Shown here: in pieces, positions 4,147-55,977 of the stretch | How positions within the stretch are numbered: the first letter of the stretch is position 1 | Layout of the letters: each line of letters opens with the position of its first letter | Assembly (NCBI GenBank): GCA_942492865.1 | Contig: OW818650.1 | Location: 1,960,564-2,024,563 of the forward strand | Reading direction: 5' to 3' | From: an uncultured Bacteroidales bacterium | GTDB taxonomy: Bacteria > Bacteroidota > Bacteroidia > Bacteroidales > VadinHA17 | DNA: 64,000 nucleotides | Position numbers and translations under genes: made by a program | Notes under the pieces: model-generated | Told to the model about the DNA's origin: nothing | What the model saw: the letters and a program-made list of their open reading frames with translations, nothing else | Database searches by the model: none

Positions 4147-4735
4147 GGGAGATCCTGTTTAACCTCTTCCATTGAGATCCCTTGCTGCGATTACAAATTT
4201 CAACCTCTTTAACATTCATGATGAAGGCGACAGTGAGATCCCTTGTACGACTTTTCCTGACTTCTGACGCTTTCTATATTTAGTGAGGTTGAAATTTTCA
4301 ATTATTTTTACCTCATGTAAGGGAGGAATTCCCCTCCTTGGAGGGGTTAGGGGTGGGTTAAAAGTTATAATAAAAAATCCCATAAAGGATAAACAGAGAT
4401 AATACATATTGCTTGTTAAAAGAAAAAAAAGCCCAGAAAATACTCAGTTAAAAGCACTGGCAAAAAACTCAGAAAAGACATTACTATCAAATAAACACGA
4501 CTCTTGGAAAAATTAAAGAAAGAATACCTAAGAACCCACCCTGGCCCCTCCGAGGAGGGGAATCATAACTATCAAATCTCTGCCCTAATACCTATTAATT
4601 GCAACCTCTTTAAAATTCATGGTAAACATGATTGTGGGATCCCTTGCTGCGATTACAAGTTACAATCTCTTTAAAGTTCATGGGGGACACGATGATGAGA
4701 TCCCTTGCTTCGCTGCGGGATGAAGTCAGGATTTT
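4140..4735. repeat. Intergenic repeat cluster: 61-bp GAGATCCCTTGC units plus CCCCTCC/GGAGGGG hairpin motifs
   Basis: Holds about 3.5 copies of the unit also arrayed at 20.7-21.8 kb (for example 4168-4250 and 4592-4725). Hairpin motifs are CCCCTCCTTGGAGGGGTTAGGGGTGGG at 4331-4357 and its inverted form at 4536-4570. The block at 4262-4360 recurs at 20420-20515. Confidence 0.85.
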
Positions 4736-9519: not shown

Positions 9520-9679
9520 ATCAATTATATTTAAATAGTACAAAGATTTATCTTCTTAAAGAGTGATTTTATGAGCCTTTGCTTTATCAGGAACGGTCAA
9601 ATCGGGCCCGGAACCGCAATAGGATTTTAATTGTAACTCAAAAGAAAACTTATAACATACCAAATATAAAAACATTTCG

Positions 9680-9687
9680 TATATTTG
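9680..9687 (+). promoter_or_regulatory. Candidate -7 promoter box (TAnnTTTG) for the arsR operon
   Basis: TATATTTG, 31 nt upstream of ATG 9718, in the acr3/arsR divergent region. Confidence 0.35.
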
Positions 9688-9717
9688 CGAAATAACAAAG
9701 TAAAAATAATATTAATC

Positions 9718-11492: not shown

Positions 11493-11524
11493 TTTAAAAA
11501 ACAGGAATCCAATAAATAGATTAA

Positions 11525-11664
11525 GATTCCTCGCATCGCTCGGAATGACATGGTTGTGGGGGTCATATGGATCGGAGGAAAAACACCTGAGCGTTTTTCC
11601 TCCGATCCATATCCCAAAAAAATAAAACTGTCATTCCGAATGAAGCATAGCGAAATGAGGAATC
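11525..11664 (+). repeat. Nested double-hairpin element inside the ars operon
   Basis: Outer inverted repeat GATTCCTCGCATCGCTCGGAATGACA (11525-11550) pairs with TGTCATTCCGAA..GCGAAATGAGGAATC (11629-11664). Inner perfect 17-bp inverted repeat TGGATCGGAGGAAAAAC / GTTTTTCCTCCGATCCA spans 11569-11609. Confidence 0.85.
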
Positions 11665-11696
11665 TGTTAATTAAACCACCAAATTTTCAACTTAAC

Positions 11697-13040
11697 ATGG
11701 AACTCAAAAAAGAATTAAAAATACTGTTCTGGATTGCAGCCATTTTTGCTTTTGCATTTTTCTTACCAATAGAAAGTGCAAGATTCAATACTGCCATTGC
11801 TGCTACACTTGATCTTGTAAAATGGTATGCACAGGAACATGTTATTCTCTGTCTGCTTCCTGCGTTTTTTATTGCAGGGGTGATATCGGTATTTGTGAGC
11901 CAGGCATCAGTAATTAAGTATTTTGGCGCACAGGCAAAAAAATGGGTGGCATATACCGTTGCGGCCGTTTCAGGAACTATTCTGGCTGTCTGCTCATGCA
12001 CGATCCTTCCTTTGTTTTCAAGTATTCACAAAAGAGGCGCTGGTCTGGGACCCGCAATTGCATTTTTATACTCAGGACCTGCAATAAATATTTTGGCAAT
12101 AATACTTACTGCCAGAATCCTTGGCTTCGAAATGGGTGTTGCCAGGACAATCGGAGCCGTTTCCTTCAGTGTAGTAATTGGATTGATTATGGCATTTATT
12201 TACAGGAAGGAAGAAAAAGTAAAGAAGGAAGAACAAATGAATATAACTCCCCTACCCGAAAAAAGACCGATGTGGCAGACTTCATTGCATTTCTTTACTC
12301 TCGTTCTGATCCTTGTCTTTGCCAACTGGGGAAAACCCGGTGAAGACGATACCACAAGTGCATGGTTCTATTTATGGCATTATAAATGGTGGATAACCGG
12401 CTTCTTTAGTCTTATCCTGGGCTATTCGCTTATTAAGGTCCTTAAGATCAAATGGCAGTGGGTGCTCGGTGCCTTCCTCGTTACAGTAGCATCAGTGATA
12501 CTTTCAGATAATCTTATAGATAGCGACAAGCTCAGACCTCTGGTACCAATGCTTGTCGGAATAATTGCATTAAGTGTCATCACTATTCTTGACAAAGTGG
12601 ATGAAGAAAATAAAGCATGGACTCTTGCAACATGGGATTTTGCCAAACAGATCCTCCCTCTGCTTGCCATCGGTGTGGTCACCGCAGGTTTTCTTCTGGG
12701 GTCAACGCACGACGGTAAGACTATTGCAGGGGTGATCCCTAACGAATGGATATCGGCTCTGGTTGGTGGAAATTCGGTCTTTTCAAACTTTTTTGCATCA
12801 GTTGTGGGAGCGTTCATGTACTTCGCCACACTCACTGAGGTGCCAATTCTTCAGGGACTTATAGCCTCAGGAATGGGTAAGGGTCCCGCCCTTGCACTTC
12901 TGCTCGCCGGTCCGTCACTCTCACTGCCTAATATGCTGGTAATAAGAGGTATTCTGGGCAATCAGAAGACAATTGTTTATGTCAGCCTGGTGATTTTAAT
13001 GGCTACGATCAGCGGATTGATATACGGTTCTATTTTTTAA
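11697..13040 (+). CDS. DUF318/ArsP-like permease
   Basis: Polytopic membrane protein with the AVCSCTILPLF cysteine motif typical of the YraQ/ArsP permease family. The listed start 11550 would translate the hairpin element, so ATG 11697 (MELKKELKILFW) is preferred. Confidence 0.7.
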   Translation: MELKKELKILFWIAAIFAFAFFLPIESARFNTAIAATLDLVKWYAQEHVILCLLPAFFIAGVISVFVSQASVIKYFGAQAKKWVAYTVAAVSGTILAVCSCTILPLFSSIHKRGAGLGPAIAFLYSGPAINILAIILTARILGFEMGVARTIGAVSFSVVIGLIMAFIYRKEEKVKKEEQMNITPLPEKRPMWQTSLHFFTLVLILVFANWGKPGEDDTTSAWFYLWHYKWWITGFFSLILGYSLIKVLKIKWQWVLGAFLVTVASVILSDNLIDSDKLRPLVPMLVGIIALSVITILDKVDEENKAWTLATWDFAKQILPLLAIGVVTAGFLLGSTHDGKTIAGVIPNEWISALVGGNSVFSNFFASVVGAFMYFATLTEVPILQGLIASGMGKGPALALLLAGPSLSLPNMLVIRGILGNQKTIVYVSLVILMATISGLIYGSIF

Positions 13041-20363: not shown

Positions 20364-20715
20364 ATGATATAATAAAGCGATTCTTTACCAGATTAAGAAA
20401 TTCCGGTCTGCCTCCTGACTTCCGACGAAATCAAAATTTAGTATGGTTGAAATTTTCAATTATTACCTCATGTAGGGGAGAAATTCCCCTCCTTGGAGGG
20501 GTTAGGGGTGTAGCCGTCAACCTAAGGGTTTGGGGATGTATTTATATTATTGATATTGTGAATTATATGCGATATAGTCTCCCCTCCTTTGCCAAAAGGA
20601 GGGGTGGCCGGGCTACAATTTCACTTTTGTGTAAAAAGGTCTTTCCCGGCCGGGGTGGTTAGATAAAATTAAATTGTAACTTCTCTCTATGAAAGGCACC
20701 AACCTTCATACATAT

Positions 20716-21075
20716 TAATTACAACCTCTTTTACATTCATGGTGGACACGATGGTGAGATGTCATGCGGTGCATATCAATTACAACCTCTTTTAAGTTCA
20801 TGGTAAACATGATTGTGGGATCCCTTGCTGCGATTACAAATTGCAATCTCTTTAAAGTTCCTGGTGAACGCGATAATGAGATCCCTTGCTTCGTATATTA
20901 ATTGCAACCTCCTTTAACATTCATGGTGAATGCGATTATGAGATCCCTTGCTATGCATATTAATTACAACCTCTTTTAAATTCATGGTAAACATGATTGT
21001 GGGATCCCTTGCTGCGATTACAAATTGCAATCTCTTTAAAGTTCCTGGTGAACGCGATAATGAGATCCCTTGCTG
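20716..21075 (+). repeat. Tandem array of six ~61-bp units (consensus about GAGATCCCTTGCTGCGATTACAAnTTGCAACCTCTTTAAAGTTCATGGTGAACGCGATAAT)
   Basis: The CATGGT/CCTGGT landmark recurs at 20738, 20799, 20860, 20922, 20983 and 21044 (period 61-62). Units 2-3 are repeated as units 5-6. Confidence 0.9.
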
Positions 21076-21300
21076 CGCTGCGGGATGACATGCGCTTTTT
21101 GGGGTTATGGGGTGAAAAAGTGGCGATCCGCTACATAGTTCTTTATTGAATGATCGTTCCGGATCGCCACTTTTTCACCCTCTCAACCACCTGTGCAGCT
21201 GTCATTTCGAAGCGATAGCGAGAAATCTCACTATAACAGGCAGGACTTTTTAAGTGAACCTCTTCAACATTCATGGTGAACACGACAGTGAGATCCCTTG
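20857..21300 (+). repeat. Copy 1 of a ~444-bp near-identical direct repeat
   Basis: The same string recurs at 21391-21835 with only about three differences that I can see (ataatgag/ataataag, cctcctttaac/cctcttttaac, caccctctc/cacccctctc). Confidence 0.9.
21062..21229 (+). repeat. Nested double-hairpin element (copy A)
   Basis: Outer imperfect inverted repeat GAGATCCCTTGCTGCGCTGCGGGATGACA (21062-21090) pairs with TGTCATTTCGAAGCGATAGCGAGAAATCTC (21200-21229). Inner perfect 20-bp inverted repeat GGTGAAAAAGTGGCGATCCG (21111-21130) pairs with CGGATCGCCACTTTTTCACC (21160-21179). Confidence 0.9.
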
Positions 21301-21390
21301 CTTCGCATATTAATTGCATCCTCCTTTAACATTCATTGTTAAGGCGACAGTGAGATTCCAATCCTGGTTTCATATTACGACCTCCTTAAA

Positions 21391-21835
21391 GTTCCTGGTG
21401 AACGCGATAATAAGATCCCTTGCTTCGTATATTAATTGCAACCTCTTTTAACATTCATGGTGAATGCGATTATGAGATCCCTTGCTATGCATATTAATTA
21501 CAACCTCTTTTAAATTCATGGTAAACATGATTGTGGGATCCCTTGCTGCGATTACAAATTGCAATCTCTTTAAAGTTCCTGGTGAACGCGATAATGAGAT
21601 CCCTTGCTGCGCTGCGGGATGACATGCGCTTTTTGGGGTTATGGGGTGAAAAAGTGGCGATCCGCTACATAGTTCTTTATTGAATGATCGTTCCGGATCG
21701 CCACTTTTTCACCCCTCTCAACCACCTGTGCAGCTGTCATTTCGAAGCGATAGCGAGAAATCTCACTATAACAGGCAGGACTTTTTAAGTGAACCTCTTC
21801 AACATTCATGGTGAACACGACAGTGAGATCCCTTG
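21391..21835 (+). repeat. Copy 2 of the ~444-bp near-identical direct repeat
   Basis: See copy 1. The offset is 534-535 bp. Confidence 0.9.
21596..21765 (+). repeat. Nested double-hairpin element (copy B, inside duplicate 2)
   Basis: Same sequence as copy A apart from one extra C after the inner stem. Confidence 0.9.
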
Positions 21836-22145
21836 TACGACTTTTCTCTTCGTTGGCGCCAATTTGAAATTGGTGCCCTGCATTTCAAATAATTTTTTGC
21901 TCCTTATTCTATCCCCGGAGACTGAATGTAACTGTGCAAATAGGAACTGCAATACGTTAAAAATAAAAGGCATCAATTGCAAATTGGCGCCAGAAGTGTA
22001 TTAGATCCCTTGCTGCTCTGTGGGTTGACATCAATTTTTGGGTAGCTTTAATGGTTTTTAATCTGCATTTAATTTATATTTAATCATCTTTTAATAAAGA
22101 AATTTTATCATTGTATTTTGAAAAACCTCCTTTAAACAAAATGTT

Positions 22146-25811: not shown

Positions 25812-28800
25812 ATGAAAAGGTCATTATTTCAGAAGTACATTCTTCTGTGTTTGCTTAACGTCTTTTCTTTACTTCTTTCGGCTCAGATACCGACCCCATT
25901 TACAGTTACAGGTAGTGGCTCATATTGCGTGGGGTCTGGTGGATTAGCTGTCGGTCTTGATAATTCTCAAGCAGATGTCCTCTATACCCTTTACCGGGAC
26001 GGAACAGCTCAACCGGATCCTGTTCCCGGTAGTGGTTCATCTATCTCCTTCGGAAACCAACTTTTCGGGACCTATACCGTGATCGGAGTAAATGGGGATG
26101 GAACTTCCGGAATGAATGGCAGTGCTGTTATAATTGAAAATCCTATTCCTCCCGCTCCCTCAGGCAGCGCAATACAGACCTTCTGCTCGGGCGCTTTGCC
26201 GACGGTGACCAATCTCACCGTAACCGGAACTGGCATCAGATGGTATGATGCCTTAACCGGTGGAAACCTTCTTACTTCTTCAGCAGCGCTGGTCAACGGA
26301 TCACATTATTTTGCAAGTCAGACTGTGGATGGATGCGAAAGTAATCTCAGGCTCGATGTAACCGCAGTTGTAAATACAACGCCTCCTGCTCCGACTGGGG
26401 TCTCATCACAAACTTTCTGCTCGGGCGCTTTGCCGACGGTGACCAATCTCGCCGTAACCGGAACTGGCATCAGATGGTATGATGCCTTAACCGGGGGAAA
26501 CCTTCTTGCTTCCTCAACAGCGCTGGTCAACGGATCTCATTATTTTGCAAGTCAGACTGTGGATGGATGCGAAAGTAATCTCAGGCTCGATATAACTGCA
26601 ATTGTAAACACAACTCCTTCCGCTCCCGCTGGCAGCGCAATACAGACCTTCTGCTCGGGCGCTTTGCCGACGGTGACCAATCTCGCCGCAACAGGAACTG
26701 GTATCAGATGGTATGATGCCTTAACCGGTGGAAACCTTCTTGCTTCTTCTACAGCGCTGGTCAACGGATCTCATTATTTTGCAAGTCAGACTGTGGATGG
26801 ATGCGAAAGTAATCTCAGGCTCGATATAACTGCAATTGTAAACACAACTCCTTCCGCTCCCGCTGGCAGCGCAATACAGACCTTCTGCTCGGGCGCTTTG
26901 CCGACGGTGACCAATCTCGCCGCAACAGGAACTGGTATCAGATGGTATGATGCCTTAACCGGTGGAAACCTTCTTGCTTCTTCTACAGCGCTGGTCAACG
27001 GAACTCATTATTTTGCAAGCCAGACTGTGGATGGATGCGAAAGTAATCTCAGGCTCGATGTAACTGCAATTGTAAACACAACTCCTTCCGCTCCCGCAGG
27101 CAGCGCAACACAAACCTTCTGCTCGGGCGCTTTGCCGACGGTGACCAATCTCACCGTAACCGGAACTGGCATCAGATGGTATGATGCCTTAACCGGTGGA
27201 AACCTTCTTACTTCTTCAGCAGCGCTGGTCAACGGATCTCATTATTTTGCAAGCCAGACTGTGGATGGATGCGAAAGTAATCTCAGGCTCGATGTAACCG
27301 CAGTTGTAAATACAACGCCTCCCGCCCCCACTGGAATCTCAACACAGACCTTCTGCTCGGGCGCTTTGCCGACAGTGACCAATCTCGCCGCAACAGGAAC
27401 TGGCATCAGATGGTATGATGCCTTAACCGGGGGAAACCTTCTTGCTTCTTCTACAGCGCTGGTCAACGGAAGTCACTATTTTGCAAGCCAGACTGTGGAT
27501 GGATGCGAAAGTAATCTCAGGCTCGATGTAACTGCAATTGTAAACACAACTCCTTCCGCTCCCGCTGGCAGCGCAATACAGACCTTCTGCTCGGGCGCTT
27601 TGCCGACGGTGACCAATATCGCCGCAACAGGAACTGGTATCAGATGGTATGATGCCTTAACCGGTGGAAACCTTCTTACTTCTTCTACAGCGCTGGTCAA
27701 CGGATCACATTATTTTGCAAGTCAGACTGTGGATGGATGCGAAAGTAATCTCAGGCTCGATATAACTGCAATTGTAAACACAACTCCTTCCGCTCCCGCA
27801 GGCAGCGCAACACAAACCTTCTGCTCGGGCGCTTTGCCGACGGTGACCAATCTCACCGTAACCGGAACTGGCATCAGATGGTATGATGCCTTAACCGGTG
27901 GAAACCTTCTTACTTCTTCAGCAGCGCTGGTCAACGGATCTCATTATTTTGCAAGCCAGACTGTGGATGGATGCGAAAGTAATCTCAGGCTCGATGTAAC
28001 CGCAGTTGTAAATACAACGCCTCCCGCCCCCACTGGAATCTCAACACAGACCTTCTGCTCGGGCGCTTTGCCGACAGTGACCAATCTCGCCGCAACAGGA
28101 ACTAGTATCAGATGGTATGATGCCTTAACCGGGGGAAACCTTCTTGCTTCTTCTACAGCGCTGGTCAACGGATCACATTATTTTGCAAGTCAGACTGTGG
28201 ATGGATGCGAAAGTAATCTCAGGCTCGATGTAACCGCAGTTGTAAATACAACGCCTCCTGCTCCGACTGGGGTCTCATCACAAACTTTCTGCTCGGGCGC
28301 TTTGCCGACGGTGACCAATCTCACCGTAACCGGAACTGGCATCAGATGGTATGATGCCTTAACCGGTGGAAACCTTCTTACTTCTTCAGCAGCGCTGGTC
28401 AACGGAAGTCACTATTTTGCAGGCCAGACTGTGGATGGATGCGAAAGTAATCTCAGGCTCGATGTAACCGCAGTTGTAAATACAACGCCTCCCGCCCCCA
28501 CTGGAATCTCAACACAGACCTTCTGCTCGGGCGCTTTGCCGACAGTGACCAATCTCGCCGCAACAGGAACTAGTATCAGATGGTATGATGCCTTAACCGG
28601 GGGAAACCTTCTTGCTTCTTCTACAGCGCTGGTCAACGGATCACATTATTTTGCAAGTCAGACTGTGAATGGATGCGAAAGTTCATCAAGGCTCAATATA
28701 ACTGCAGTTGTTAACATCACCCCGGTTATTCCCAATCAGACAACAGCAATTTTAACAGGAACAACATTTACCATAACACCTGAAGGAGCCGGTGTCCCGG

Positions 28801-31514
28801 CAGGAACTACTTATACATGGACTGCACCTGTTTATATTGGCGGAGTGACAGGTGGTTCGGCCCAAACTGTACCCCAGCCGAATATTACAGGGACCCTGAG
28901 TATCCCCTCAGGAGCAGGGACCGCATCCTATACCGTAACACCTTCAAACGGATCATGTCCCGGAGCATCATTTACTGTCATAGTTATCGTCACTTCAACT
29001 TGTGTGAGTGCTACAATTTCCTCCCAGCCGGCAGACAGGAATATGTGTATGATCTCAGGAACATCATCATTTACGATTGGCGTAAACGGAACAACTCCTG
29101 TTGTATATCAATGGCAATACAATGACAGCGGCACATGGAGAAATGTTAGTAATGGCACTCCTTCCGGAGCTTCCTACACCGGATCAACGGGCGCCACTCT
29201 TGGTGTTTCAGGTATTACCCAGGCCGGAAGTCGGCAGTACCGCTGCCTGGTTTCCAATTGCGGCATCGCGACAAGTATTGCTTCAAATCCGGCAACGCTG
29301 ACAGTGGATCCGTTACCATCCGCACCTACCATAGGATCGGTTTTGCATCCTACATGTATAAATCCTACAGGTACGATCAATATCTCGGCTCCGACCGGAA
29401 CAGGATTTACTTATAGCATCAATGGGACCAACTATACAAATACAACCGGAGTATTTTCCAATGTCAGTGCAGGGAATTACACTGTCACTGCAAGAAGCGC
29501 ATCCGGATGTATTTCTCCCACAACCGCAGTGACAGTGAATGCTCAGCCGGCAACACCTCCGGCCCCAACAGTTACCCTCGTACAACCAACCTGTAATACT
29601 CCGACAGGTTCAGTAACCGTTACAGCTCCTACTGGTATCGGAATGACCTACAGTATCAACAATACTACTTATACAAACACTACCGGGGTATTCACCGCAG
29701 TAACAAGCGGTACATATACTGTTACCGCAAGAAACACTGCAGGATGTACATCAGCAGGAACAATCGTTAATATCCAGGCACAACCTTTAATACCGACAGT
29801 GACAGTAACCAATCCTGCAGCGGTCTGTTCTCCATCAACAGTCAATATAACTGCTCCTGCTGTTACGACCGGTTCAACCTCGAATCTGACTTACACCTAC
29901 TGGACTAATGCTGCGGCTACAGCAACGTATTCCACTCCAACGACAGCAAGTTCAGGCACTTATTATATTAAGGGAACTACAAGCGCAGGATGTTACGATG
30001 TTGCACCGGTGATTGTAACAGTCCTGCAAACGCCGACAGCCAATGCAGGGACCGGAGGGAATGAATGTGATCTCAACTTTCAGCTTAACGCAATATCAAG
30101 TGCAGGTACAGGCACCTGGACAATGACATCAGGTCCCGGCGCAGCATCGTTCAGTCCGAATGAAAACACACCAAATGCAATAGTTACTGTTTCGGTTTAC
30201 GGCACTTATACTTTCAGATGGACCGAAGTGAATGGTATCTGTTCAGGAAGTAACAGCATTACTGTTAACTTTTACCAGCAACCTGTTGCAAATGCAGGAA
30301 CAGGAGGCAATAATTGCGGACTTCAGTTCAATCTCAACGGGTCGATGAACGTGGGTACAGGAGTATGGACCAGAGTAAGCGGTACAGGCACTGTTTTATT
30401 CTCACCATCGGATACTTCTCCAAACGCTATAGTAACAGTACCTGGTTTTGGTGCATACAGGTTCAGGTGGACTGTTACCAATGGAACATGTTCAAACAGT
30501 TCGGATGTTAATGTTACTTTTGTCCAGCAGCCTGCAGCAAATGCAGGCTCAGGAGGTGAAGAATGCGACCTTGATCATATATTAAATGCTACACCAGGAA
30601 TTACAGGGGGGAAATGGAGTAAGATCAGCGGTCCGGGCGATGCAATTTTCAGCAATATTTCAAGCTATAATGCGACTGTAAGCGTTAGCAAAACAGGTAC
30701 TTATGAATTTGCCTGGACAATTGAAAACAGTTCGTGCAGCTCAATTGATTTCATAACAGTAGTATTCCATGAACTCCCTCAAATTTCAGCGGGCCCGGAT
30801 ACTGTAATTTGCGAAGATGGATCAGCCCAGCTTCACGCATCCGGCAATGGCAGCTTCATTTGGGAGCCTTCAGCCTCGCTCAGCAATCCTGCTCTGGTCA
30901 ATCCCGTTGCAACTCCTGTGACCACAACAGTATATTCCGTTACCCTTACCGATCAGAACGGATGTAAGAACAAAGACGATGTTAAAGTTGAGGTTTTGAC
31001 AAAGCCTGTTGCTGATGCAGGCTCTGACATAATACTGGAGTACCTTTTCAAAACATCCCTGGATGCAACAGCTTCTGATAACGGTTCCGGTACATGGTCA
31101 TTGATAACGGGCTCGGGGATTTTTAAAGATGCAACTGAAGAAAATACAGAAATAACAGGACTTTCACCCGGAATTAATGAATTCCGGTGGACTGTCACAA
31201 ACGGAGTATGCCCTGTTGTAAGCGATGACGTAACGGTAACTGTAAAGAACCTGGAAATTCCGACATTAATAACCCCTGATCACGGGGATGATTACAATGA
31301 ATATTTTATAATCAGGGGAATTGAAACTCTAGGAAAAACCTCTTTAATAATTTTTGACAGGAGAGGTGTTAAGGTTTATGAGAACAACAACTACAACAAT
31401 GATTGGAATGGGGTGGATTATAATAATAAGGACCTTCCGGAGGATACCTATTTTTATAATATCAAATCAGAGAATGTAAAACCGGTCAGTGGCTTTATTG
31501 TAATAAAAAGATGA
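25812..31514 (+). CDS. Giant T9SS-secreted cell-surface repeat protein (type-B / CHU_C C-terminal sorting domain)
   Basis: Signal peptide, then 11 x 78-aa Cys-bracketed repeats, an Ig-like segment (VYQWQYNDSGTWRNV), two CxxPTG repeats (HPTCINPTGTINISAPTG) and five ANAG.GG.EC modules. The C-terminus IPTLITPDHGDDYNEYFIIRGIE...DRRGVKVYE...WNGVD...LPEDTYFY matches the gliding-motility-associated C-terminal domain. Confidence 0.9.
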   Translation: MKRSLFQKYILLCLLNVFSLLLSAQIPTPFTVTGSGSYCVGSGGLAVGLDNSQADVLYTLYRDGTAQPDPVPGSGSSISFGNQLFGTYTVIGVNGDGTSGMNGSAVIIENPIPPAPSGSAIQTFCSGALPTVTNLTVTGTGIRWYDALTGGNLLTSSAALVNGSHYFASQTVDGCESNLRLDVTAVVNTTPPAPTGVSSQTFCSGALPTVTNLAVTGTGIRWYDALTGGNLLASSTALVNGSHYFASQTVDGCESNLRLDITAIVNTTPSAPAGSAIQTFCSGALPTVTNLAATGTGIRWYDALTGGNLLASSTALVNGSHYFASQTVDGCESNLRLDITAIVNTTPSAPAGSAIQTFCSGALPTVTNLAATGTGIRWYDALTGGNLLASSTALVNGTHYFASQTVDGCESNLRLDVTAIVNTTPSAPAGSATQTFCSGALPTVTNLTVTGTGIRWYDALTGGNLLTSSAALVNGSHYFASQTVDGCESNLRLDVTAVVNTTPPAPTGISTQTFCSGALPTVTNLAATGTGIRWYDALTGGNLLASSTALVNGSHYFASQTVDGCESNLRLDVTAIVNTTPSAPAGSAIQTFCSGALPTVTNIAATGTGIRWYDALTGGNLLTSSTALVNGSHYFASQTVDGCESNLRLDITAIVNTTPSAPAGSATQTFCSGALPTVTNLTVTGTGIRWYDALTGGNLLTSSAALVNGSHYFASQTVDGCESNLRLDVTAVVNTTPPAPTGISTQTFCSGALPTVTNLAATGTSIRWYDALTGGNLLASSTALVNGSHYFASQTVDGCESNLRLDVTAVVNTTPPAPTGVSSQTFCSGALPTVTNLTVTGTGIRWYDALTGGNLLTSSAALVNGSHYFAGQTVDGCESNLRLDVTAVVNTTPPAPTGISTQTFCSGALPTVTNLAATGTSIRWYDALTGGNLLASSTALVNGSHYFASQTVNGCESSSRLNITAVVNITPVIPNQTTAILTGTTFTITPEGAGVPAGTTYTWTAPVYIGGVTGGSAQTVPQPNITGTLSIPSGAGTASYTVTPSNGSCPGASFTVIVIVTSTCVSATISSQPADRNMCMISGTSSFTIGVNGTTPVVYQWQYNDSGTWRNVSNGTPSGASYTGSTGATLGVSGITQAGSRQYRCLVSNCGIATSIASNPATLTVDPLPSAPTIGSVLHPTCINPTGTINISAPTGTGFTYSINGTNYTNTTGVFSNVSAGNYTVTARSASGCISPTTAVTVNAQPATPPAPTVTLVQPTCNTPTGSVTVTAPTGIGMTYSINNTTYTNTTGVFTAVTSGTYTVTARNTAGCTSAGTIVNIQAQPLIPTVTVTNPAAVCSPSTVNITAPAVTTGSTSNLTYTYWTNAAATATYSTPTTASSGTYYIKGTTSAGCYDVAPVIVTVLQTPTANAGTGGNECDLNFQLNAISSAGTGTWTMTSGPGAASFSPNENTPNAIVTVSVYGTYTFRWTEVNGICSGSNSITVNFYQQPVANAGTGGNNCGLQFNLNGSMNVGTGVWTRVSGTGTVLFSPSDTSPNAIVTVPGFGAYRFRWTVTNGTCSNSSDVNVTFVQQPAANAGSGGEECDLDHILNATPGITGGKWSKISGPGDAIFSNISSYNATVSVSKTGTYEFAWTIENSSCSSIDFITVVFHELPQISAGPDTVICEDGSAQLHASGNGSFIWEPSASLSNPALVNPVATPVTTTVYSVTLTDQNGCKNKDDVKVEVLTKPVADAGSDIILEYLFKTSLDATASDNGSGTWSLITGSGIFKDATEENTEITGLSPGINEFRWTVTNGVCPVVSDDVTVTVKNLEIPTLITPDHGDDYNEYFIIRGIETLGKTSLIIFDRRGVKVYENNNYNNDWNGVDYNNKDLPEDTYFYNIKSENVKPVSGFIVIKR
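26148..28721 (+). repeat. Eleven tandem 234-bp (78-codon) repeats inside the adhesin gene
   Basis: The period is exactly 234 bp: antisense ORF ends fall at 26296, 26530 ... 28636, spaced by 234. Repeats 3 and 4 are essentially identical. The pair 5-6 recurs as 8-9, and repeat 6 recurs again as repeat 11. Confidence 0.95.
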
Positions 31515-34832: not shown

Positions 34833-34980
34833 GGCTCAGGGCACAGAGCACAGTGCAAAAGGATTCTTCACTAACCACTCACCACTCACGTCTCACTTCT
34901 TAATTCTTCCTCCCTGCACCCTGAGCTCTGAGCTTAACTCTGAAACCCTGAACCACTGAAACCACTGAAACACTGAAACA
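34833..34980 (+). repeat. Heptamer-tract composite element upstream of wza
   Basis: ATGGCTCAGG GCACAGA GCACAGT at the left. Then CACTAAC CACTCAC CACTCAC GTCTCAC, then CCCTGAGCTCTGAGC, then CTGAAAC-type units. It ends 17 nt before the wza ATG. Confidence 0.8.
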
Positions 34981-42199: not shown

Positions 42200-43406
42200 T
42201 CTCAAAGCTGTTAATGATTCTTTCGGAGATGAGCTTTCGGAAGCAGTTAACCGTGTCCTTAAGTCAGGATGGTATCTGCTTGGAAATGAAGTAGGCGATT
42301 TCGAAAAAAGCTATGGGTCTTATATAGGATCAAAGCATTGCATTGGTGTGGCAAATGGTCTGGATGCACTCAGGCTCATTTTCAGAGCCTATATGGAATT
42401 GGAAATGATGAAGGAAGGAGATGAAATCATTGTTCCGGCGAATACTTATATAGCATCCATTCTTGCAATAACTGAAAACCGGTTAAAACCCGTCCTGGTT
42501 GAGCCGCAAATAAATAACTATAATATAGACGTTTCATTAATTGAAAAGAGCATTACTGCCCGCACACGTGCAATTATGGTCGTTCATCTTTACGGCAGGA
42601 CCTGCTGGTCTGAAAACCTGGAGGATATTGCTGCCAGATACAATCTGAAGATAATAGAGGATAATGCACAAGCGGCAGGAGCGATGACGATGGCTCAGAG
42701 CTCAGAGCGCAGAGCGCAGGAGAAGAAGGCACAGGGCACAGGGCACAGAGCTCAGGAGGAAATGGCTCAGAGCTCAGAGCTCAGGGCTCAGGGCAAGAAA
42801 GAGATGACCCTGAAACGAACTGGTTCATTGGGAGATGCAGCCGGTCACAGTTTTTATCCGGGGAAAAATTTAGGTGCCATAGGAGATGGAGGCGGAGTCA
42901 CTACTGATGATGATGAACTTGCTGCGGTTGTAAGATCGCTGGCGAACTATGGTTCTTCAAAGAAGTATGTATTCGAATATCAGGGATTGAATTCAAGGCT
43001 TGACGAGATACAGGCAGCAGCATTAAATGTAAAGTTGCGCAGGCTTGACCATGATAACCAGCGCCGCCGTGAAATCGCTAAATGTTATATTGAAAATATA
43101 AGGAATCAGGGAATAATTTTACCTGAAAATCCAACCTTTGACCTTTCTCATGTATGGCATCTTTTTGTTGTCCGCTCACTGTTCAGAGAACGTTTGCAGA
43201 ATTATCTTATTGAGAACGGGATACAAACGCTGATCCACTACCCTGTACCGCCTCATCAACAACAGGCATATAAGGAGTGGAATGATTTAATATTCCCATT
43301 AACTGAAAAAATTCACCGGGAAGTATTGAGTATGCCGATAAGCCAGGTAATGAATGATAATGAAATGGAGCAGGTTATTAATATTATCAATAAATTCTCC
43401 GTTTAG
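42183..43406 (+). CDS. DegT/DnrJ/EryC1/StrS aminotransferase (FdtB/QdtB-like) carrying a ~39-codon repeat-derived insertion
   Basis: MIKFLDLKAVNDSF.., IIEDNAQAAGA, GSLGDAAGHSFYPGKNLGAIGDGG and ANYGSSKKY..GLNSRLDEIQAA. The listed start 42081 lies inside the previous gene, so ATG 42183 is used. Confidence 0.85.
   Translation: MIKFLDLKAVNDSFGDELSEAVNRVLKSGWYLLGNEVGDFEKSYGSYIGSKHCIGVANGLDALRLIFRAYMELEMMKEGDEIIVPANTYIASILAITENRLKPVLVEPQINNYNIDVSLIEKSITARTRAIMVVHLYGRTCWSENLEDIAARYNLKIIEDNAQAAGAMTMAQSSERRAQEKKAQGTGHRAQEEMAQSSELRAQGKKEMTLKRTGSLGDAAGHSFYPGKNLGAIGDGGGVTTDDDELAAVVRSLANYGSSKKYVFEYQGLNSRLDEIQAAALNVKLRRLDHDNQRRREIAKCYIENIRNQGIILPENPTFDLSHVWHLFVVRSLFRERLQNYLIENGIQTLIHYPVPPHQQQAYKEWNDLIFPLTEKIHREVLSMPISQVMNDNEMEQVINIINKFSV
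42690..42806 (+). repeat. Heptamer-tract element embedded in-frame in the aminotransferase CDS
   Basis: ATGGCTCAGA GCTCAGA GCGCAGA GCGCAGG ... GGCACAG GGCACAG GGCACAG AGCTCAG ... ATGGCTCAGA GCTCAGA GCTCAGG GCTCAGG. It translates as MAQSSERRAQEKKAQGTGHRAQEEMAQSSELRAQGKKE. Confidence 0.85.
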
Positions 43407-49963: not shown

Positions 49964-51099
49964 TGAAGAACAAACCAGGTTATGCTCATCTGCGGGCACT
50001 TGTCTCACAGAATCTGATTAATATTAGAGGATGGAGAACTCCTGACAAGTTCATTGTTATCGAAAGTGACGACTGGGGAAGTATCAGGATGCCATCAAAT
50101 GAGGTTTATTCAAAATTCCTGAAAAAAGGACTGGAACTTACAGGAAGCGACTATAACAGACTTGATTCCCTCGAAAGCAATGATGATCTGATAAACCTGT
50201 ATGAAGTCCTTCACTCGTTCAGGGATTCGCACGGCAATCCCCCTGTGGTTACCGCAAATATGGTTGTAGGTAATCCTGATTTTAAAAAGATAAGGGAGTC
50301 AGATTTCAATGACTATTATTATGAACCGGTTACAGAAACGCTCAGAAGATATGATGGCCGTGAAAAGGTTGAATCTCTCTGGTTGCAGGGAAAGACTGAA
50401 AAGGTCTTCCATCCACAATTTCATGGCCGTGAACACGTCAATGTTGTCAGGTGGATGAGTGCTCTCAGGAAGAAAACACCGGGGATAATGTTCGCATTTG
50501 AAAATGAGACAACATTCTCGGGTGAGGGGGATTATAATTTCATGGAGGTTCTTGATTATAATAGCAGGGCTGACCTTGTAAAAATGAAGGAAAGTCTTGT
50601 TGAAGGACTGAACAATTTTGAAAAAATATTTGGTTTCAGGTCGCAGTCATTCATTCCGCCATGCTATACCTGGGATAGCAATATTGAGGAAACACTTTAT
50701 ATAAACGGGGTAAATTATATCCAGGGACTGGTAATTCAATCAGTACCCACCGGTTCATTCGGGAAGTACACAAAGAAAATTCATTATATGGGAAAGCGGA
50801 ACTCCTGCGGACAGTATTATCTCATCAGGAACTGCTTTTTCGAACCCTCTCTTTCCAAAAAAACTGATCCGGTTGGAGACTGCCTTAACCGTATAAATGT
50901 CGCTTTCAGATGGCATAAACCGGCAATAATTGGCAGTCATCGTATAAACTTTATAGGATCACTAGATGAAAGTAACAGGGATAACAATTTAAGATTACTG
51001 AAAGAGCTTCTTTCCCGGATATTGAAAGAATGGCCCGAAGTCATCTTCATTACTTCAGATCAGCTTGGTGAAATGATGGCGGGGGAGCGGAGAGCGTAA
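49963..51099 (+). CDS. Uncharacterised protein, paralogue of 62693..63802 (possible divergent NodB-like deacetylase)
   Basis: Shares IESDDWGSIRMPS, NPDFKKIR, FHGREH, RNCFFEP and AFRWHKPAIIGSHRINF with the second copy. The stop codon TAA (51097-51099) lies inside the first GCGTAAA heptamer of the downstream element. Confidence 0.6.
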   Translation: MKNKPGYAHLRALVSQNLINIRGWRTPDKFIVIESDDWGSIRMPSNEVYSKFLKKGLELTGSDYNRLDSLESNDDLINLYEVLHSFRDSHGNPPVVTANMVVGNPDFKKIRESDFNDYYYEPVTETLRRYDGREKVESLWLQGKTEKVFHPQFHGREHVNVVRWMSALRKKTPGIMFAFENETTFSGEGDYNFMEVLDYNSRADLVKMKESLVEGLNNFEKIFGFRSQSFIPPCYTWDSNIEETLYINGVNYIQGLVIQSVPTGSFGKYTKKIHYMGKRNSCGQYYLIRNCFFEPSLSKKTDPVGDCLNRINVAFRWHKPAIIGSHRINFIGSLDESNRDNNLRLLKELLSRILKEWPEVIFITSDQLGEMMAGERRA

Positions 51100-51628
51100 A
51101 GCGGAGAGCGTAAAGCGTAAAGCGTAAAGCGTAAAGAGGAAAGAGGAAAGAGAGTACCCATTATTATAAAGGACAGTGAGTAAGATTGAGAGTCATAAAG
51201 ATTTAATTGTTTATCAAAAGGCGTACAAGCTGGCAATGGAGATTTTTGAAATATCCAAAAGTTTTCCGAAAGAGGAAAAATATTCACTGACAGACCAAAT
51301 TAGAAGATCATCGAGATCTGTGACTTCATGCCTGGCTGAATCATGGGCAAAGAGAAGGTATGAAAAAGCATTTGCTAACAAACTTACAGACTCACTGGGT
51401 GAAGAAAATGAAACAGAAGTCTGGCTTGATTATTCAAAAGACTGCAAATATATTACTGATGCGGAACATGTCAACTTTATGAATGAATATTTAGAGGTCC
51501 GTAAAATACTTATATCTATGATCAATAACCTGGATAAGTGGTGCAATAATTAATTTCTCCATTCTCTCCTCTTTTTTCTTTCTTTACGCTATACGCTAAA
51601 CGCTCTACGCTCACCTCTCATCGCTTCA
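51087..51628 (+). mobile_element. IVS-like cassette: four-helix-bundle gene bracketed by heptamer-built imperfect inverted repeats
   Basis: Left arm 51087-51154: GCGGAGA GCGTAAA GCGGAGA (GCGTAAA)x4 (GAGGAAA)x2 GAGAG. Right arm 51556-51628: CTCTCCTCTTTTTTCTTTCTTTACGCTATACGCTAAACGCTCTACGCTC followed by ACCTCTCATCGCT. The arms are about 75-80 percent reverse-complementary over ~45 nt. Confidence 0.4.
51176..51553 (+). CDS. Four-helix-bundle protein (23S rRNA intervening-sequence protein family, PF05635-like)
   Basis: HKDLIVYQKAYKLAMEIFEISKSFPKEEKYSLTDQIRRSSRSVTSCLAESWAKRRY...EVWLDYSKDCKYI is the family hallmark. GTG start as listed. Confidence 0.85.
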   Translation: MSKIESHKDLIVYQKAYKLAMEIFEISKSFPKEEKYSLTDQIRRSSRSVTSCLAESWAKRRYEKAFANKLTDSLGEENETEVWLDYSKDCKYITDAEHVNFMNEYLEVRKILISMINNLDKWCNN

Positions 51629-51631
51629 TAA

Positions 51632-52783
51632 ATGCAATCTGAAAAAATAAACACAGATCCCATAAAGATCCTCCTAACCGGAGACTTCTGTCCCCACAAC
51701 CGGATTGAGAAACTGGCTCTTAAAGAAGACTTCGGAGCAATCTTCAATGATTTCATTGATGTGTTTCAGGGGAATGATCTGAATATTACTGACCTGGAGT
51801 GCCCTTTGACAACATCGGAAACAGCAAGACCAAAAACGGGTCCCCATCAGAAGGCTCATCCCGATTGTATTAATATCCTGAAATATGCAGGGATTAACCT
51901 TGCTGCGATGGCAAATAATCATATCATGGATTATGATAACAATGGTATTCAGGATACAATTGATCTTTGCAAAAGAGCAGAAATTAATACGGTTGGTGTG
52001 GGGCAATCTCTGGAAGCTGCTTCAAAACCTTTTTCAGCAAATATAAAGGGGAAAAGATTTGCAATACTGAATTATGCTGATAACGAGTTCCTGTCAACTC
52101 CGGACGGATCATTTACATGTAATCCATTGGATCAGGTCCGCTTGTTTTATGATATCAAAAATGCCAGGCAAACCAATGATTTTCTGATAATAATCGTTCA
52201 TGCCGGGAATGAGTTTTTTGAATTGCCATCACCCCGGACAAAGAGGTTATACAGGTATATTGCTGATCTCGGTGCTGATGTGGTAATTGCCCATCACACA
52301 CATGCCTGGTCGGGATATGAAATATATGATTCAAAACCAATCTTCTACGGATTGGGAAACTTTATCTATGACTGGCCCGGAAAATTGAATTCAAGGTGGA
52401 ACCAGGGTTATGTTGTGAGGCTTAAAGTATCTGATAGAACTGACTTCGAAATTATCCCAATTAAACAATGCAATGAGATTCCGGGAGTTTTTCATCTCAA
52501 TTCAGAGGAGATTGGGGGCTTTTTAAATGAGATGGATCGTCTCAATAAAATAATTGCCGATGACGATCATCTGGAAACTGAATTTCAGAAATACTGTAAG
52601 TCAGTCCAGCCAATGTATGAAGCATTCATTGAACCAAATTTTGGCAAAAAAATTGCATCACTAAGAAAAAGAGGATTATTTCCTAAACTAATGTCCAAAA
52701 GAAAACGCCTTCTTCTGTTAAATATCACACGCTGTGAATCTCATCGTGATGTTCTTCAAAGAATGCTTAAACAATATGAATAA
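51632..52783 (+). CDS. CapA-family (PGA_cap) metallophosphatase-fold protein
   Basis: ILLTGDFCP...ECPLT...NLAAMANNHIMDYDNNGIQDTIDLC...GVG and VHAGNEF...VIAHHTHAWSGYE match the CapA/PGA_cap pattern. Confidence 0.75.
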   Translation: MQSEKINTDPIKILLTGDFCPHNRIEKLALKEDFGAIFNDFIDVFQGNDLNITDLECPLTTSETARPKTGPHQKAHPDCINILKYAGINLAAMANNHIMDYDNNGIQDTIDLCKRAEINTVGVGQSLEAASKPFSANIKGKRFAILNYADNEFLSTPDGSFTCNPLDQVRLFYDIKNARQTNDFLIIIVHAGNEFFELPSPRTKRLYRYIADLGADVVIAHHTHAWSGYEIYDSKPIFYGLGNFIYDWPGKLNSRWNQGYVVRLKVSDRTDFEIIPIKQCNEIPGVFHLNSEEIGGFLNEMDRLNKIIADDDHLETEFQKYCKSVQPMYEAFIEPNFGKKIASLRKRGLFPKLMSKRKRLLLLNITRCESHRDVLQRMLKQYE

Positions 52784-52784
52784 A

Positions 52785-52927
52785 GCGTAGAGCGTAAAGC
52801 GTAAAGCGTAAAGCGTAAAACGTAAAGCGTAAAGCGTAATGGAAAGAGAATAGAGAAGGTGTATTTGTCTCTACGCTCTACGCTCTACGCTCATCACTCA
52901 CCTCTCATCACTCATCGCTACCCTCTC
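52785..52927 (+). repeat. Cargo-less heptamer hairpin element between capA-like and asnB
   Basis: The left arm runs in strict register from 52785: GCGTAGA (GCGTAAA)x4 ACGTAAA GCGTAAA GCGTAAT GGAAAGA GAATAGA. After a spacer come (CTCTACG)x3 (52869-52889), then TCATCAC TCACCTC TCATCAC TCATCGC up to the asnB ATG. Confidence 0.9.
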
Positions 52928-52929
52928 AT

Positions 52930-54864: not shown

Positions 54865-55861
54865 GGGTTTCTTCTGCGATCGCTGGATCCCATATTGTCA
54901 GGAAAATAATGTTGATTACAGAATTGTGGATTGCTACAGTTCGGATATAATGCAGCAAATATCTGACTGTGATATTCTTATGTGGCATTTCAACCATAAA
55001 AGCCCAAAGGCAAGCAAGTTTGCCAAACAGCTGCTTTACTCAGTAGAAGCTTGCGGTAAAAAGGTATTTCCTGATTTTAATACTGTCTGGCATTTTGATG
55101 ATAAAGTGGGACAAAAGTATCTGCTCGAATCGTTAGGAGCCCCGCTGGCACCTTCTTATGTATTCTACGACAAAAAGGAAGCACTTGAATGGGCTGGAAA
55201 TACATCCTTCCCAAAAGTTTTCAAGTTACGCAATGGGGCCGGGTCTGATAATGTGAAACTGGTCAGATCAAAAAAAGAAACAGTAAGGATTATCAATAAG
55301 GCCTTCGGACGAGGATTCAGACAATATGAGGGATGGATTAATCTGAAGGAGAGATACAGGAAGTACAGGCTTGGAAAAACCACCTCATGGAATGTGATGA
55401 AGGGAGTTTTGAGGCTTTTCCATAAAACAGAATATGCAAGGGTTACAGGCAAAGAAATCGGATATGCCTATTTTCAGGACTTTATTCCGGACAACGATCA
55501 TGATATCCGGGTTATAGTAATCGGCAACAAGGCATTTGCAATAAAAAGAATGGTACGTGATAATGATTTCAGGGCTTCAGGAAGCGGAATGATACTTTAC
55601 GATAAGGAGCTTTTTGATGACGATACTATCCGTTTATCATTTGAGATCTCTGAAAAGCTTGGATCTCAGAGCATGGCGTATGATTTTGTTTTTCTGAACG
55701 GCAAACCCCTGATCGTTGAGATAAGCTATGGATTTGCAATGCATGGTTATGATCCATGCCCCGGTTACTGGGACCGTAATCTGGTGTGGCATGCCGGTAA
55801 ATTCAATCCTTATGGATGGATGGTTGAGGACATTTTAAGAAGCGTTGAGAAGAAAGCGTAA
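54839..55861 (+). CDS. ATP-grasp domain protein
   Basis: FPKVFKLRNGAGSDNVKLVRSKKE and YFQDFIPDNDHDIRVIVIGNKAFAIKRMVRDNDFRASGSG fit an ATP-grasp fold. ATG 54839 (MKIAIHN) is preferred to 54803. The stop TAA (55859-55861) lies inside the first GCGTAAA heptamer. Confidence 0.6.
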   Translation: MKIAIHNTKGFFCDRWIPYCQENNVDYRIVDCYSSDIMQQISDCDILMWHFNHKSPKASKFAKQLLYSVEACGKKVFPDFNTVWHFDDKVGQKYLLESLGAPLAPSYVFYDKKEALEWAGNTSFPKVFKLRNGAGSDNVKLVRSKKETVRIINKAFGRGFRQYEGWINLKERYRKYRLGKTTSWNVMKGVLRLFHKTEYARVTGKEIGYAYFQDFIPDNDHDIRVIVIGNKAFAIKRMVRDNDFRASGSGMILYDKELFDDDTIRLSFEISEKLGSQSMAYDFVFLNGKPLIVEISYGFAMHGYDPCPGYWDRNLVWHAGKFNPYGWMVEDILRSVEKKA

Positions 55862-55977
55862 AGCGTAGAGCGTAGAGCGGAAAGAATAAGCGTAGAGCGT
55901 AGAGCGTAAAGCGTAGAGAGTAGAGAGTAATTTTTCTGAGCCCTGAGCTCTGAGCCCTGAGCCCTGAGCCCTGAGCC
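55856..55977 (+). repeat. Heptamer-tract composite element (GCGTARA tract followed by CTGAGCY tract)
   Basis: GCGTAAA GCGTAGA GCGTAGA GCGGAAA GAATAA GCGTAGA GCGTAGA GCGTAAA GCGTAGA GAGTAGA GAGTAAT, a TTTT spacer, then CTGAGCC CTGAGCT (CTGAGCC)x4. Confidence 0.9.

Follow-up and report, generated by a model that had tools for sequence, protein, structure and literature searches.

What kind of element places perfectly paired hairpins between the genes of an ars operon? The question arises from a 64,000-nucleotide stretch of DNA of an uncultured Bacteroidales bacterium (lineage VadinHA17; assembly GCA_942492865.1, contig OW818650.1, positions 1,960,564 to 2,024,563), hereafter the window. Three nested double-hairpin elements had been noticed in it, one of them in the ars operon, and had been ascribed to a family of structured elements with a possible action on the operon's mRNA. 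Our analysis makes it likely that they belong to a non-autonomous, multi-copy palindromic DNA repeat of the repetitive extragenic palindromic (REP) type in Bacteroidota, copies of which include the one in the ars operon. Comparison of close relatives shows gain, loss or replacement of the element, which lies downstream of genes or in the spacers of co-directional genes and can expand into tandem clusters, as at 21 kb. Its unit is a tail-to-tail dimer of REP hairpins carrying a TGTC tag (TGTC-ATTCC...GGAAT-CTC), with the tags pointing inward. Loci from outside the window are given by L numbers.

Structure of the Elements in the Window

Direct reading of the 64-kb window placed the elements at 11523-11666 (e11k), 21062-21229 (e21a) and 21596-21764 (e21b), and all three double-hairpin elements of the original prediction were found at about the positions given there. 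The three copies are real; however, e21a and e21b are not independent. They are parts of a 534/535-bp tandem duplication with 97-98% identity, detected by Tandem Repeats Finder and a repeat finder, and are one C apart in the alignment. Thus, the window contains two independent elements. When e11k was aligned with the 21-kb copies, homology was confined to the ends of ~30 nt, and the interiors could not be aligned. The common left end is GAGATYCCTYGC..CGGRATGACATG and the common right end is CTGTCATTYCGAA..GAGRAATCTC.

An element comprises three hairpins. Two inverted arms of ~30 nt, with their tags inward, surround a spacer of 80-110 nt, and the interior of the spacer is a perfect hairpin of 20-22 bp in the window elements. 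The order within the spacer is T-rich tract, G-run, perfect hairpin, C-run and A-rich tract. The unit can be folded in two ways, as three separate hairpins or as a single long interrupted hairpin. Folding was far stronger than that of shuffled controls on both strands, as RNA or as DNA (z = -7.7 to -12.2).

Pairing is perfect in all inner stems, which have 20 bp and an 8-nt loop (e11k) or 21 bp (e21a) and 22 bp (e21b) and a 29-nt AT-rich loop. They had been described as unlike in sequence and yet each perfectly self-complementary, and this agrees with the 20-bp and 21-22-bp stems and the unalignable interiors. An A5/T5 run and CGATCC/GGATCG had also been taken as common to them. By direct reading, the order and orientation of these segments differ between the two stems and there is no colinear homology; a homology of the inner stems via GGATCG and the A5 run was dismissed on this ground.

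The left arm of e11k (11523-11550, minus strand) is a REP-type hairpin of the short form. It reads TGTC-ATTCCGAGC-GAT-GCGAGGAAT-CTT on the minus strand, shows the arm covariation and scored 45.7 bits (E = 3e-7) with the covariance model of the arm. It is followed by spacer 1 (11551-11564; TGGTTGTGGGGGTC) with the G-run at its end, the central perfect hairpin (11565-11612; arms 11565-11584 and 11593-11612, 20 bp; loop 11585-11592) and the A-rich spacer 2 (11613-11628; CCCAAAAAAATAAAAC). The right arm (11629-11666, plus strand; TGTC-ATTCC-GAATGAAGCATAGCGAAATGA-GGAAT-CTG) is of the long-loop form and scored 33.6 bits.

The arms of e21a and e21b were assigned by direct reading and by the arm covariance model. 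In e21a, the left arm (21062-21090, minus strand) has the stem ATCCC/GGGAT, the right arm (21200-21229, plus strand) has the stem ATTTC/GAAAT, and the central hairpin lies at 21110-21180 (arms 21110-21130 and 21160-21180, 21 bp; 29-nt AT-rich loop). In e21b, the left arm (21596-21624, minus strand) is the tandem duplicate of that of e21a, and the right arm is at 21735-21764 on the plus strand. Its central hairpin (21643-21715; arms 21643-21664 and 21694-21715, 22 bp; 29-nt loop) is 100% complementary.

Structure of the Arms

Read from the tag, the consensus arm is TGTC-ATTCC-GA-GC-GAA-GC-GA-GGAAT-CTC and is self-complementary. The stem consists of five Watson-Crick pairs, with A-T and T-A first, a tandem G·A/A·G and two covarying pairs, making nine stacked positions of which seven are Watson-Crick. 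The apical loop of the short form has 3 nt (GAA, GAT or GGA). In the long forms, the ATTCC and GGAAT halves are 11-20 nt apart, and this loop sometimes contains a mini-hairpin (e.g. TCCGCC-N4-GGCGGA). The tail has 3 nt and reads CTC, CTT, CTA or CTG. The TGTC tag opens all six window arms and every unique arm captured, a constancy that is partly forced by the search patterns, which contained the tag.

All fetched DNA yielded 116 unique arms. Their 5-bp stem was ATTCC/GGAAT in 70, ATCCC/GGGAT in nine, ATTCT/AGAAT in five and ATTTC/GAAAT in two, and mixed combinations were rare. The two apical pairs change jointly (GC/GC, AC/GT or GT/AC). When 20 distinct arms were aligned, 96.4% of the cells were paired and both-sided changes were present in five of seven pairs. 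None of 500 shuffles reached these values, and no slid register came close. The covariance model of the arm was run unfiltered across the whole 64-kb window; it matched the six arms, a degenerate arm at 4697-4723 and, weakly, 22002-22030, and nothing further. An analysis of 31 full elements with MAFFT and RNAalifold was uninformative. Since the variable cores are unalignable, RNAalifold recovered only the helix imposed by the search pattern. This analysis was replaced by loop-anchored counts per subfamily and by the arms-only alignment.

Distribution of the Family in Other Genomes

We scanned 185,579 species-representative genomes for the inner ends of the two arms at a distance of 51-111 nt, a pattern that itself required the tags-inward orientation of the arms. 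Among the 41 stretches returned, the same architecture was found in 33 stretches of Bacteroidota metagenome-assembled genomes (MAGs), mostly Bacteroidales, and in one Methanosarcina-binned contig (L039); the latter carries a typical element and may be misbinned. The original prediction had proposed a scan of relatives as a check, and further copies beyond the window were indeed found in these 33 Bacteroidota stretches. Its view of a REP/MITE-like structured family (MITE, miniature inverted-repeat transposable element) is supported, with several copies in some single genomes and arms resembling CGTC/TGTC repeats. All Bacteroidota copies found have the tags inward, i.e. tail-to-tail, as the scan pattern demanded. 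In 8-kb genome pieces, the MAG CAWJBC01 has five dispersed copies and CAWGUN01 has three, with common cores; tandem clusters were seen in others.

The family layout is an arm, a spacer of 12-23 nt (T-rich, then a G-run), the central hairpin, an A-rich spacer of 13-23 nt and an arm. The central hairpin has 16-27 bp, except in L016, L021 and L022 (9-12 bp). Its loop is mostly 3-5 nt, and ~30 nt in the e21-like subfamily. Its sequence is almost wholly different between subfamilies, and only ~8 non-Watson-Crick pairs were counted over all central stems, with ~4 G·U in ~660 pairs. In the CGATTCG group, which includes e21, the stem has 10 variable positions, and all cells are Watson-Crick except one G·T in L026. 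Stem changes in the CAWJBC01 and CAWGUN01 groups are likewise mostly compensated within the subfamily.

By a crude gene call, the elements lie between co-directional genes in 19 cases, convergent genes in nine and divergent genes in one. Their orientation among the co-directional cases is weakly biased (13 vs 6). With the five tandem copies of L025 counted as one event, same-strand upstream genes number 24 and opposite-strand ones eight.

One subfamily, comprising L005, L027, L028, L036 and L038 of MAG CAWJBC01 together with L030, sits inside a MITE of ~250 bp. This MITE ends in inverted repeats of its own, CTGATGTTACGCAA...TTGCGTAACATCAG, next to which are AT-rich duplications of 7 bp that differ between copies (TTAATAA, TTGATAA and TAATTAA). 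Since the duplications flank the outer inverted repeats and not the REP arms, the REP dimer is the cargo of a different MITE, and this subfamily probably spread as such cargo.

The matches in Dehalococcoidia, Burkholderiales and a deltaproteobacterial MAG are arm arrays without the central hairpin and were kept out of the element statistics. Dense arrays of TGTC arms with closely similar stems were observed in the Dehalococcoidia chromosome OZ253489.1, a complete genome (L014, L015, L020, L024 and L037), and in the Burkholderiales MAG (L018). The arm pattern alone had exact matches in 32 IMG/VR contigs (L123-L154), as head-to-head dimers whose spacer ends are complementary. The full-element pattern had no match in IMG/VR, and BLAST of both elements against plasmid and phage collections matched none. 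The arms are distributed across phyla, with phage as a possible vector, and the occurrence of TGTC-arm variants in several phyla and in viral contigs bears on the long-standing question of their dissemination.

The Copy in the ars Operon

The gene order around e11k is ArsR-type regulator, thioredoxin-fold protein, ArsF-like protein, DsbD_2/CcdA-like membrane protein (dsbD2), e11k and ArsP_1 permease (arsP). The element lies within the 204-nt gap between the dsbD2 stop at 11492 and arsP. Its placement between the CcdA-like and permease genes, and its absorption into the listed open reading frame (ORF) 11550..13040, had been recognised correctly; the true start of arsP is the conserved ATG 11697, where orthologues begin with MELKKELKIL. 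In the near-identical L001, a 1-nt indel disrupts the frame of the upstream ORF extension. Because of the conserved ATG and this frame-breaking indel, the extension of ORF 11550..13040 is an artefact. Such elements matter for annotation, as they inflate ORFs: the arsP start was moved 147 nt upstream in the window, and in L001 a gene caller placed it within the element. Breaks in metagenome assemblies are another probable consequence, and the L001 contig appears rearranged at a repeat cluster.

With the DsbD_2 protein as query, 80 orthologous loci (76-94% identity) were recovered from metagenomes, in 56 of which the arsP start was within 520 nt. The element was present in five of these 56 junctions (L046, L086, L090, L094 and L107; L086 and L090 are the same in sequence). 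The other 51 were element-free, mostly with a spacer of 60-130 nt. The element is absent from the junction in relatives at 91-94% protein identity (L043, L047, L050 and L052). Outside the 56, the window and L001, which was found by a separate look-up, also carry it at this junction.

The arms are similar across the carriers, and three unrelated cores are found at the one junction: the e11k-type core (window, L001, L046 and L107), a AAGAGGCGGCGGC hairpin (L086 and L090), and a core of 101 nt without a hairpin (L094). The e11k orthologues in L001, L046 and L107 keep GGATCGGAGGAAAAACGC, with the loop and the stem base altered, and in L046 the loop of the right arm is exchanged for a mini-hairpin. 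Thus, the presence of the element in five of the 56 junctions and its three different cores indicate lineage-specific insertion or replacement.

A palindrome, ATTTCG-N8-CGAAAT, is located just upstream of arsR in the window (9675-9692). The same palindrome was found in the dsbD2-arsP spacer of many orthologues without the element (19 by strict pattern; carriers include L043, L044, L050-L053, L057, L059 and L063) and was absent from every element-bearing spacer. Because it stands just upstream of arsR, it is probably an ArsR operator. If so, the relatives would have a second regulated arsP promoter that was lost in the window lineage. The 11.5-kb copy would have supplanted the usual dsbD2-arsP spacer, which in many relatives bears this operator-like palindrome, and control of arsP in this lineage may have changed.

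In other lineages (L071, L109, L066, L069 and L048), different and unrelated palindromic repeats, for example of the types GCCACGAAGACACAAAGACACCAAGG…CCTTGGTGGC and CCCCTTTCCCG…CGGGAAAGG, are inserted in the dsbD2-arsP spacer. This spacer is a hotspot of such insertions.

If e11k is co-transcribed, the RNA would form a hairpin of ~-72 kcal/mol with a perfect tip of 20 bp, which could be a target of RNase III or a block to 3' exonucleases. An effect of this hairpin on the ars mRNA is possible, and would be a by-product rather than a conserved function.

Changes between Close Relatives

The window and L001 are 98.6% identical across 7 kb. When 401 nt around e11k were aligned, 10 of the 12 differences fell inside the 144-nt element. 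Three substitutions occur within five bases: L001 has cTTGTTGATC and the window has cATATGGATC, which is exactly complementary to GATCCATAT. The substituted positions are exactly the three that are not complementary to this other arm in L001. Furthermore, the apical 4-nt loop is TCAG in L001 and its reverse complement, CTGA, in the window. L003 and L006 have a common 22-bp stem, and their 33-nt loops match at 27 of 33 positions as reverse complements, as compared with 19 of 35 directly.

Intrastrand template switching in quasipalindromes classically yields clustered perfecting changes and loop inversion, as described by the Ripley model. Such mutagenesis is known from reporter genes, and E. 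coli thyA and lacZ contain hotspots. The comparison of the window with L001 resembles it in both features, and that of L003 with L006 in loop inversion. These results suggest that DNA-level template switching is behind the apparent covariation. Because clustered perfecting changes, loop inversion and a near absence of G·T in the central stems were observed, a DNA-level process is its simplest source. During DNA synthesis, a mutation in either half of the central stem would be transferred to its partner, whether through intrastrand template switching (quasipalindrome correction) or through gene conversion. This copying would also invert the loop, and the outcome would resemble RNA covariation without selection on RNA. 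Quasipalindrome mutagenesis differs from the other systems considered below in being a mutational mechanism, not an element family, and here we infer it from comparisons.

The compensatory changes noticed originally are thus real, but those between near-identical strains look templated at the DNA level, not selected at the RNA level. For RNA discovery, perfect covarying helices of this kind are most likely of DNA-level origin, and covariation-based screens for non-coding RNA call for caution.

The e21 core also occurs at a third place, in L001. This e21-type copy, at the site equivalent to ~4.1 kb of the window, may be an assembly artefact across repeats and was not counted as an insertion polymorphism.

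Tests for a Strand Signal and for RNA Structure

Apparent G·U pairs in the outer stems of the 21-kb copies had been taken as a hint of an RNA read from the plus strand. The left arm (ATCCC/GGGAT) and the right arm (ATTTC/GAAAT) of e21 are each perfectly self-complementary. When the left arm is paired with the right, two G·T pairs arise near the core and two C·A at the outer end; both kinds of mispair lie on the plus strand, and the hint is not borne out. The predicted RNA energies on the plus and minus strands were -95.9 vs -88.7 kcal/mol for e21b and -72.6 vs -73.6 kcal/mol for e11k. Over 40 family members, the mean plus-minus difference was -1.1 +/- 4.7 kcal/mol. A strand-specific signal is absent from the fold energies.

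The scan of the 64-kb window with Rfam 15 at gathering scores gave no match. Permissive Rfam scans of both regions gave only generic microRNA-precursor hairpin matches, with 12-36 bits against cut-offs of 45-142. A terminator-like site, i.e. a hairpin followed by a T-run, was sought in 11523-11666 and none was called. The T-rich tract is 5' and the A-rich tract 3' of the hairpin on both strands, the reverse of a terminator arrangement. A perfect palindrome has an identical reading on either strand; hence its purine-rich 5' arm and the T-rich and A-rich flanks are uninformative on orientation.

Comparison with Known Repeats

The stem of Neisseria dRS3 is ATTCCC-N8-GGGAAT. This repeat belongs to the CGTC REP superfamily, as do Rickettsia RPE-4 and RPE-6 (Di Nocera et al. 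2013, PMC3733652). REPs of the superfamily have a CGTC tag, often replaced by TGTC, or by CCTC, stems of 8-9 bp with A-T pairs first, loops of 4-5 nt and 3-nt tails, mostly CCA (PMC3733652). They occur as singletons, dimers and clusters; head-to-head dimers predominate, tail-to-tail dimers are rare, and their spacers, sometimes structured, vary from 20 to 100 bp (PMC3733652). No transposase is associated with the superfamily (PMC3733652). The Bacteroidales arms are alike in the 4-nt tag, the A-T pairs at the start of the stem, the 3-nt length of the tail, the occurrence as singletons, dimers and clusters, the intergenic location mostly after genes and, in the sequence at hand, the lack of an associated transposase gene. 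They differ in that the arm stem is interrupted by tandem G·A, that the spacer contains a perfect hairpin of variable sequence and that the hosts are uncultured Bacteroidales. In most respects, the arms resemble the CGTC/TGTC superfamily, and they agree with its formal description in part. The superfamily would thereby extend to uncultured Bacteroidales in a new arrangement.

As in REPINs and BIMEs, two inverted REPs and a spacer can be folded as a single long hairpin. Short and long arm forms are paired, as in the Y/Z heterodimers of E. coli, the tandem clusters resemble BIME-2, and compensated changes occur among the copies of one genome. In contrast to the REPIN/RAYT system, the tag is TGTC, not GTAG or GTGG; REPINs have no counterpart of the central perfect hairpin, and no RAYT (TnpA-REP) gene was found in the 670 kb of sequence at hand by a crude motif search.

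Correia (NEMIS) and ERIC elements are palindromic intergenic repeats of 100-160 bp that are co-transcribed; their RNA hairpins are cut by RNase III or RNase E, and mRNA stability is altered. By analogy, they offer the best model for a possible action of e11k inside the ars transcript. Correia elements are unrelated in sequence, and have 26-bp inverted ends and a TA duplication, neither of which was seen in the Bacteroidales elements.

Some subclasses of Y1 transposases in Bacteroidetes are flanked by atypical structures (Quentin et al., PMC6006769). The supplements of two REP papers, one of which is PMC6006769, contained no matching sequence strings, and a literature search by sequence string gave only unrelated primer matches. 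In the literature on REPs and MITEs of Bacteroidales, we found no description of a composite with a central perfect hairpin.

Origin of the Elements and Alternative Explanations

Several results weigh against the reading as a REP-type DNA repeat. Only two independent copies are present in the 64-kb window, and the status as a family depends on other genomes. A clean empty site that would fix the boundaries of e11k was sought without success: the closest orthologues lacking the element have flanks of 80-90% identity, and therefore insertion is indistinguishable from replacement. No target-site duplication of the basic unit was seen where copies with different flanks were compared (L032 vs L035/L041). 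An ORF with an HUH-Y1 motif was sought crudely in six frames over the 670 kb of the window and loci and was not found, and neither a transposase nor another mobilising enzyme was identified in the sequence at hand. The Bacteroidales dimers are tail-to-tail, whereas those of CGTC REPs are mostly head-to-head; the arm loops have 3 or 11-20 nt instead of 4-5 nt; and the tail is CTN instead of CCA. Moreover, the case for template switching consists of two or three comparisons of sequences, and the stems could instead be kept perfect by strong selection for a stable hairpin, as DNA or as RNA.

The most direct alternative is a selected cis-acting RNA, in which the co-transcribed hairpin attenuates read-through into arsP or stabilises the upstream mRNA. 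The folds are very stable, the location in short gaps between co-directional genes is common (window, L001, L005, L022, L028 and L033), the stems have compensatory changes, and same-strand upstream genes outnumber opposite-strand ones (24 vs 8); moreover, REPs and Correia elements affect mRNA stability and processing (PMC3733652, PMC6006769). The distribution is difficult to reconcile with such a function, as 51 of the 56 orthologous operons are without the element and the core is not conserved among carriers, three cores being found at one junction. No hairpin followed by a U-tract was found, and the fold energy has no strand preference. The element reads almost identically on either strand, and the orientation bias among co-directional cases is weak (13 vs 6). 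G·U is nearly absent from the central stems (~4 in ~660 pairs), which is unusual for helices selected as RNA. Thus, the intra-operonic attenuator or mRNA stabiliser of the original prediction was not supported, and we regard a selected RNA as improbable. Still less probable is a classical MITE moved by a DDE transposase, with the arms as terminal inverted repeats in double-stranded DNA and the central hairpin as a passenger. Its size of 140-190 bp, its inverted-repeat ends and its dispersal between genes would suit a MITE, and one subfamily does lie in a ~250-bp unit with its own inverted repeats and 7-bp AT-rich direct repeats. These duplications adjoin the outer inverted repeats and not the REP arms, and the basic units compared (L032 vs L035/L041) are without them. 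Each arm is a self-complementary hairpin that covaries internally, as is typical of REPs that are recognised as single-stranded DNA. In other phyla and in viral contigs, this arm is found as a singleton, as head-to-head dimers and as head-to-tail arrays.

Alternatively, the central hairpins might be host sequence, namely terminators native to the upstream genes, on both sides of which REP units were inserted later. The unique core sequences, the symmetric spacing of ~16-18 nt on each side and the position at gene 3' ends would fit, and in some species REPs are reported to insert into or beside palindromes (PMC3733652). However, identical cores and spacers recur at different loci of one genome, and the e21 core is found at a third place, in L001; this recurrence largely refutes the explanation. 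The T-run 5' and the A-run 3' of the hairpin on both strands are opposite to a terminator, none was called in the element, and the element-free orthologues have no hairpin at the dsbD2-arsP junction. Native terminators are accordingly very improbable. Among the readings as REP-type repeats, a distinct composite class, with two fixed REP boundary hairpins and a core of fast turnover, is conceivable though doubtful. Cores would be swapped between copies and continuously re-perfected by template switching, and the swapping would account for the three unrelated cores between the same arms at one orthologous site. If such a class exists, it would be a natural case of recurrent quasipalindrome correction, and a source of RNA-like covariation without an RNA function.

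Repeat Clusters and Other Features of the Window

The cluster containing e21a and e21b (20712-21835, plus strand) consists of two tandem units of 534/535 bp, each with six 61-nt repeats and one element. Each 61-nt unit opens with the outer half of the left arm (GAGATCCCTTGCT). Half-arms of the GAGATCCCTTGCT type matched 16 times on the plus strand of the window, against 1.6 expected. A smaller cluster (4174-4723, plus strand) contains 61-nt units (4174-4247 and 4575-4710) and ends in a degenerate solo arm (4697-4723; 27.9 bits, E = 0.0014). Another degenerate solo arm (TAGATCCCTTGCTGCTCTGTGGGTTGACA) at 22002-22030 on the minus strand was weak (12.5 bits); it is followed by a T-rich/G-run spacer and has no central hairpin. 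ORFs of 14 aa on the minus strand of the 61-nt repeats (M[RH]SKGSH.R.HHEC) were rejected as genes: several units have no start or stop, and 61 is not a multiple of 3.

Non-coding clusters of ~0.5 to >2 kb were observed in the window (20712-21835 and 4174-4723), in L025 (5566-7735) and in L012 (6361-7746). Their repeats are arranged head-to-tail, with 61 nt in the window and 90-91 nt in L025, and each opens with a REP arm, either complete or halved. Entire elements recur among them every 432-535 bp, and the clusters resemble BIME-2 or REP clusters of the Neisseria type. Another palindromic repeat family, AATTCCCCTCCTTGGAGGGGTTAGGGG, adjoins both 61-nt clusters in both orientations (4328-4352, 4539-4563 and 20483-20507), and its flanks are common too (…GGTTGAAATTTTCAATTATT…ACCTCATGTA…). 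Thus, with these repeats and their common flanks beside the clusters, the intergenic regions are mosaics of several repeat families. A 32-nt inverted repeat (21854-21885 and 21961-21992; TGGCGCCAATTTGAAATTGGTGCC…), 84% complementary and with 75 nt between its arms, is located between the e21b cluster and the solo arm at 22002.

Short tandem heptamers were found at gene boundaries of the window (42692-42799, 51085-51150, 52781-52929, 55853-55977 and 34936-34980) and in L049, L058, L060 and L062. The heptamers are GGCTCAG, AGCGTAA, TAAAGCG and CTGAGCC, and in relatives GCGGATT and TTTTCAA; they are often inverted sets between neighbouring spacers. T9SS genes of the window, for a PorP/SprF protein and a type B sorting domain, assign it to Bacteroidota. 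Eleven tandem repeats of 234 nt (78 aa), with 86-94% identity, are located at 26148-28716 inside ORF 25812-31514. This ORF encodes a 1900-aa protein with a T9SS type B sorting domain at its end, and is followed by a PorP/SprF gene and a PorE-like OmpA gene.

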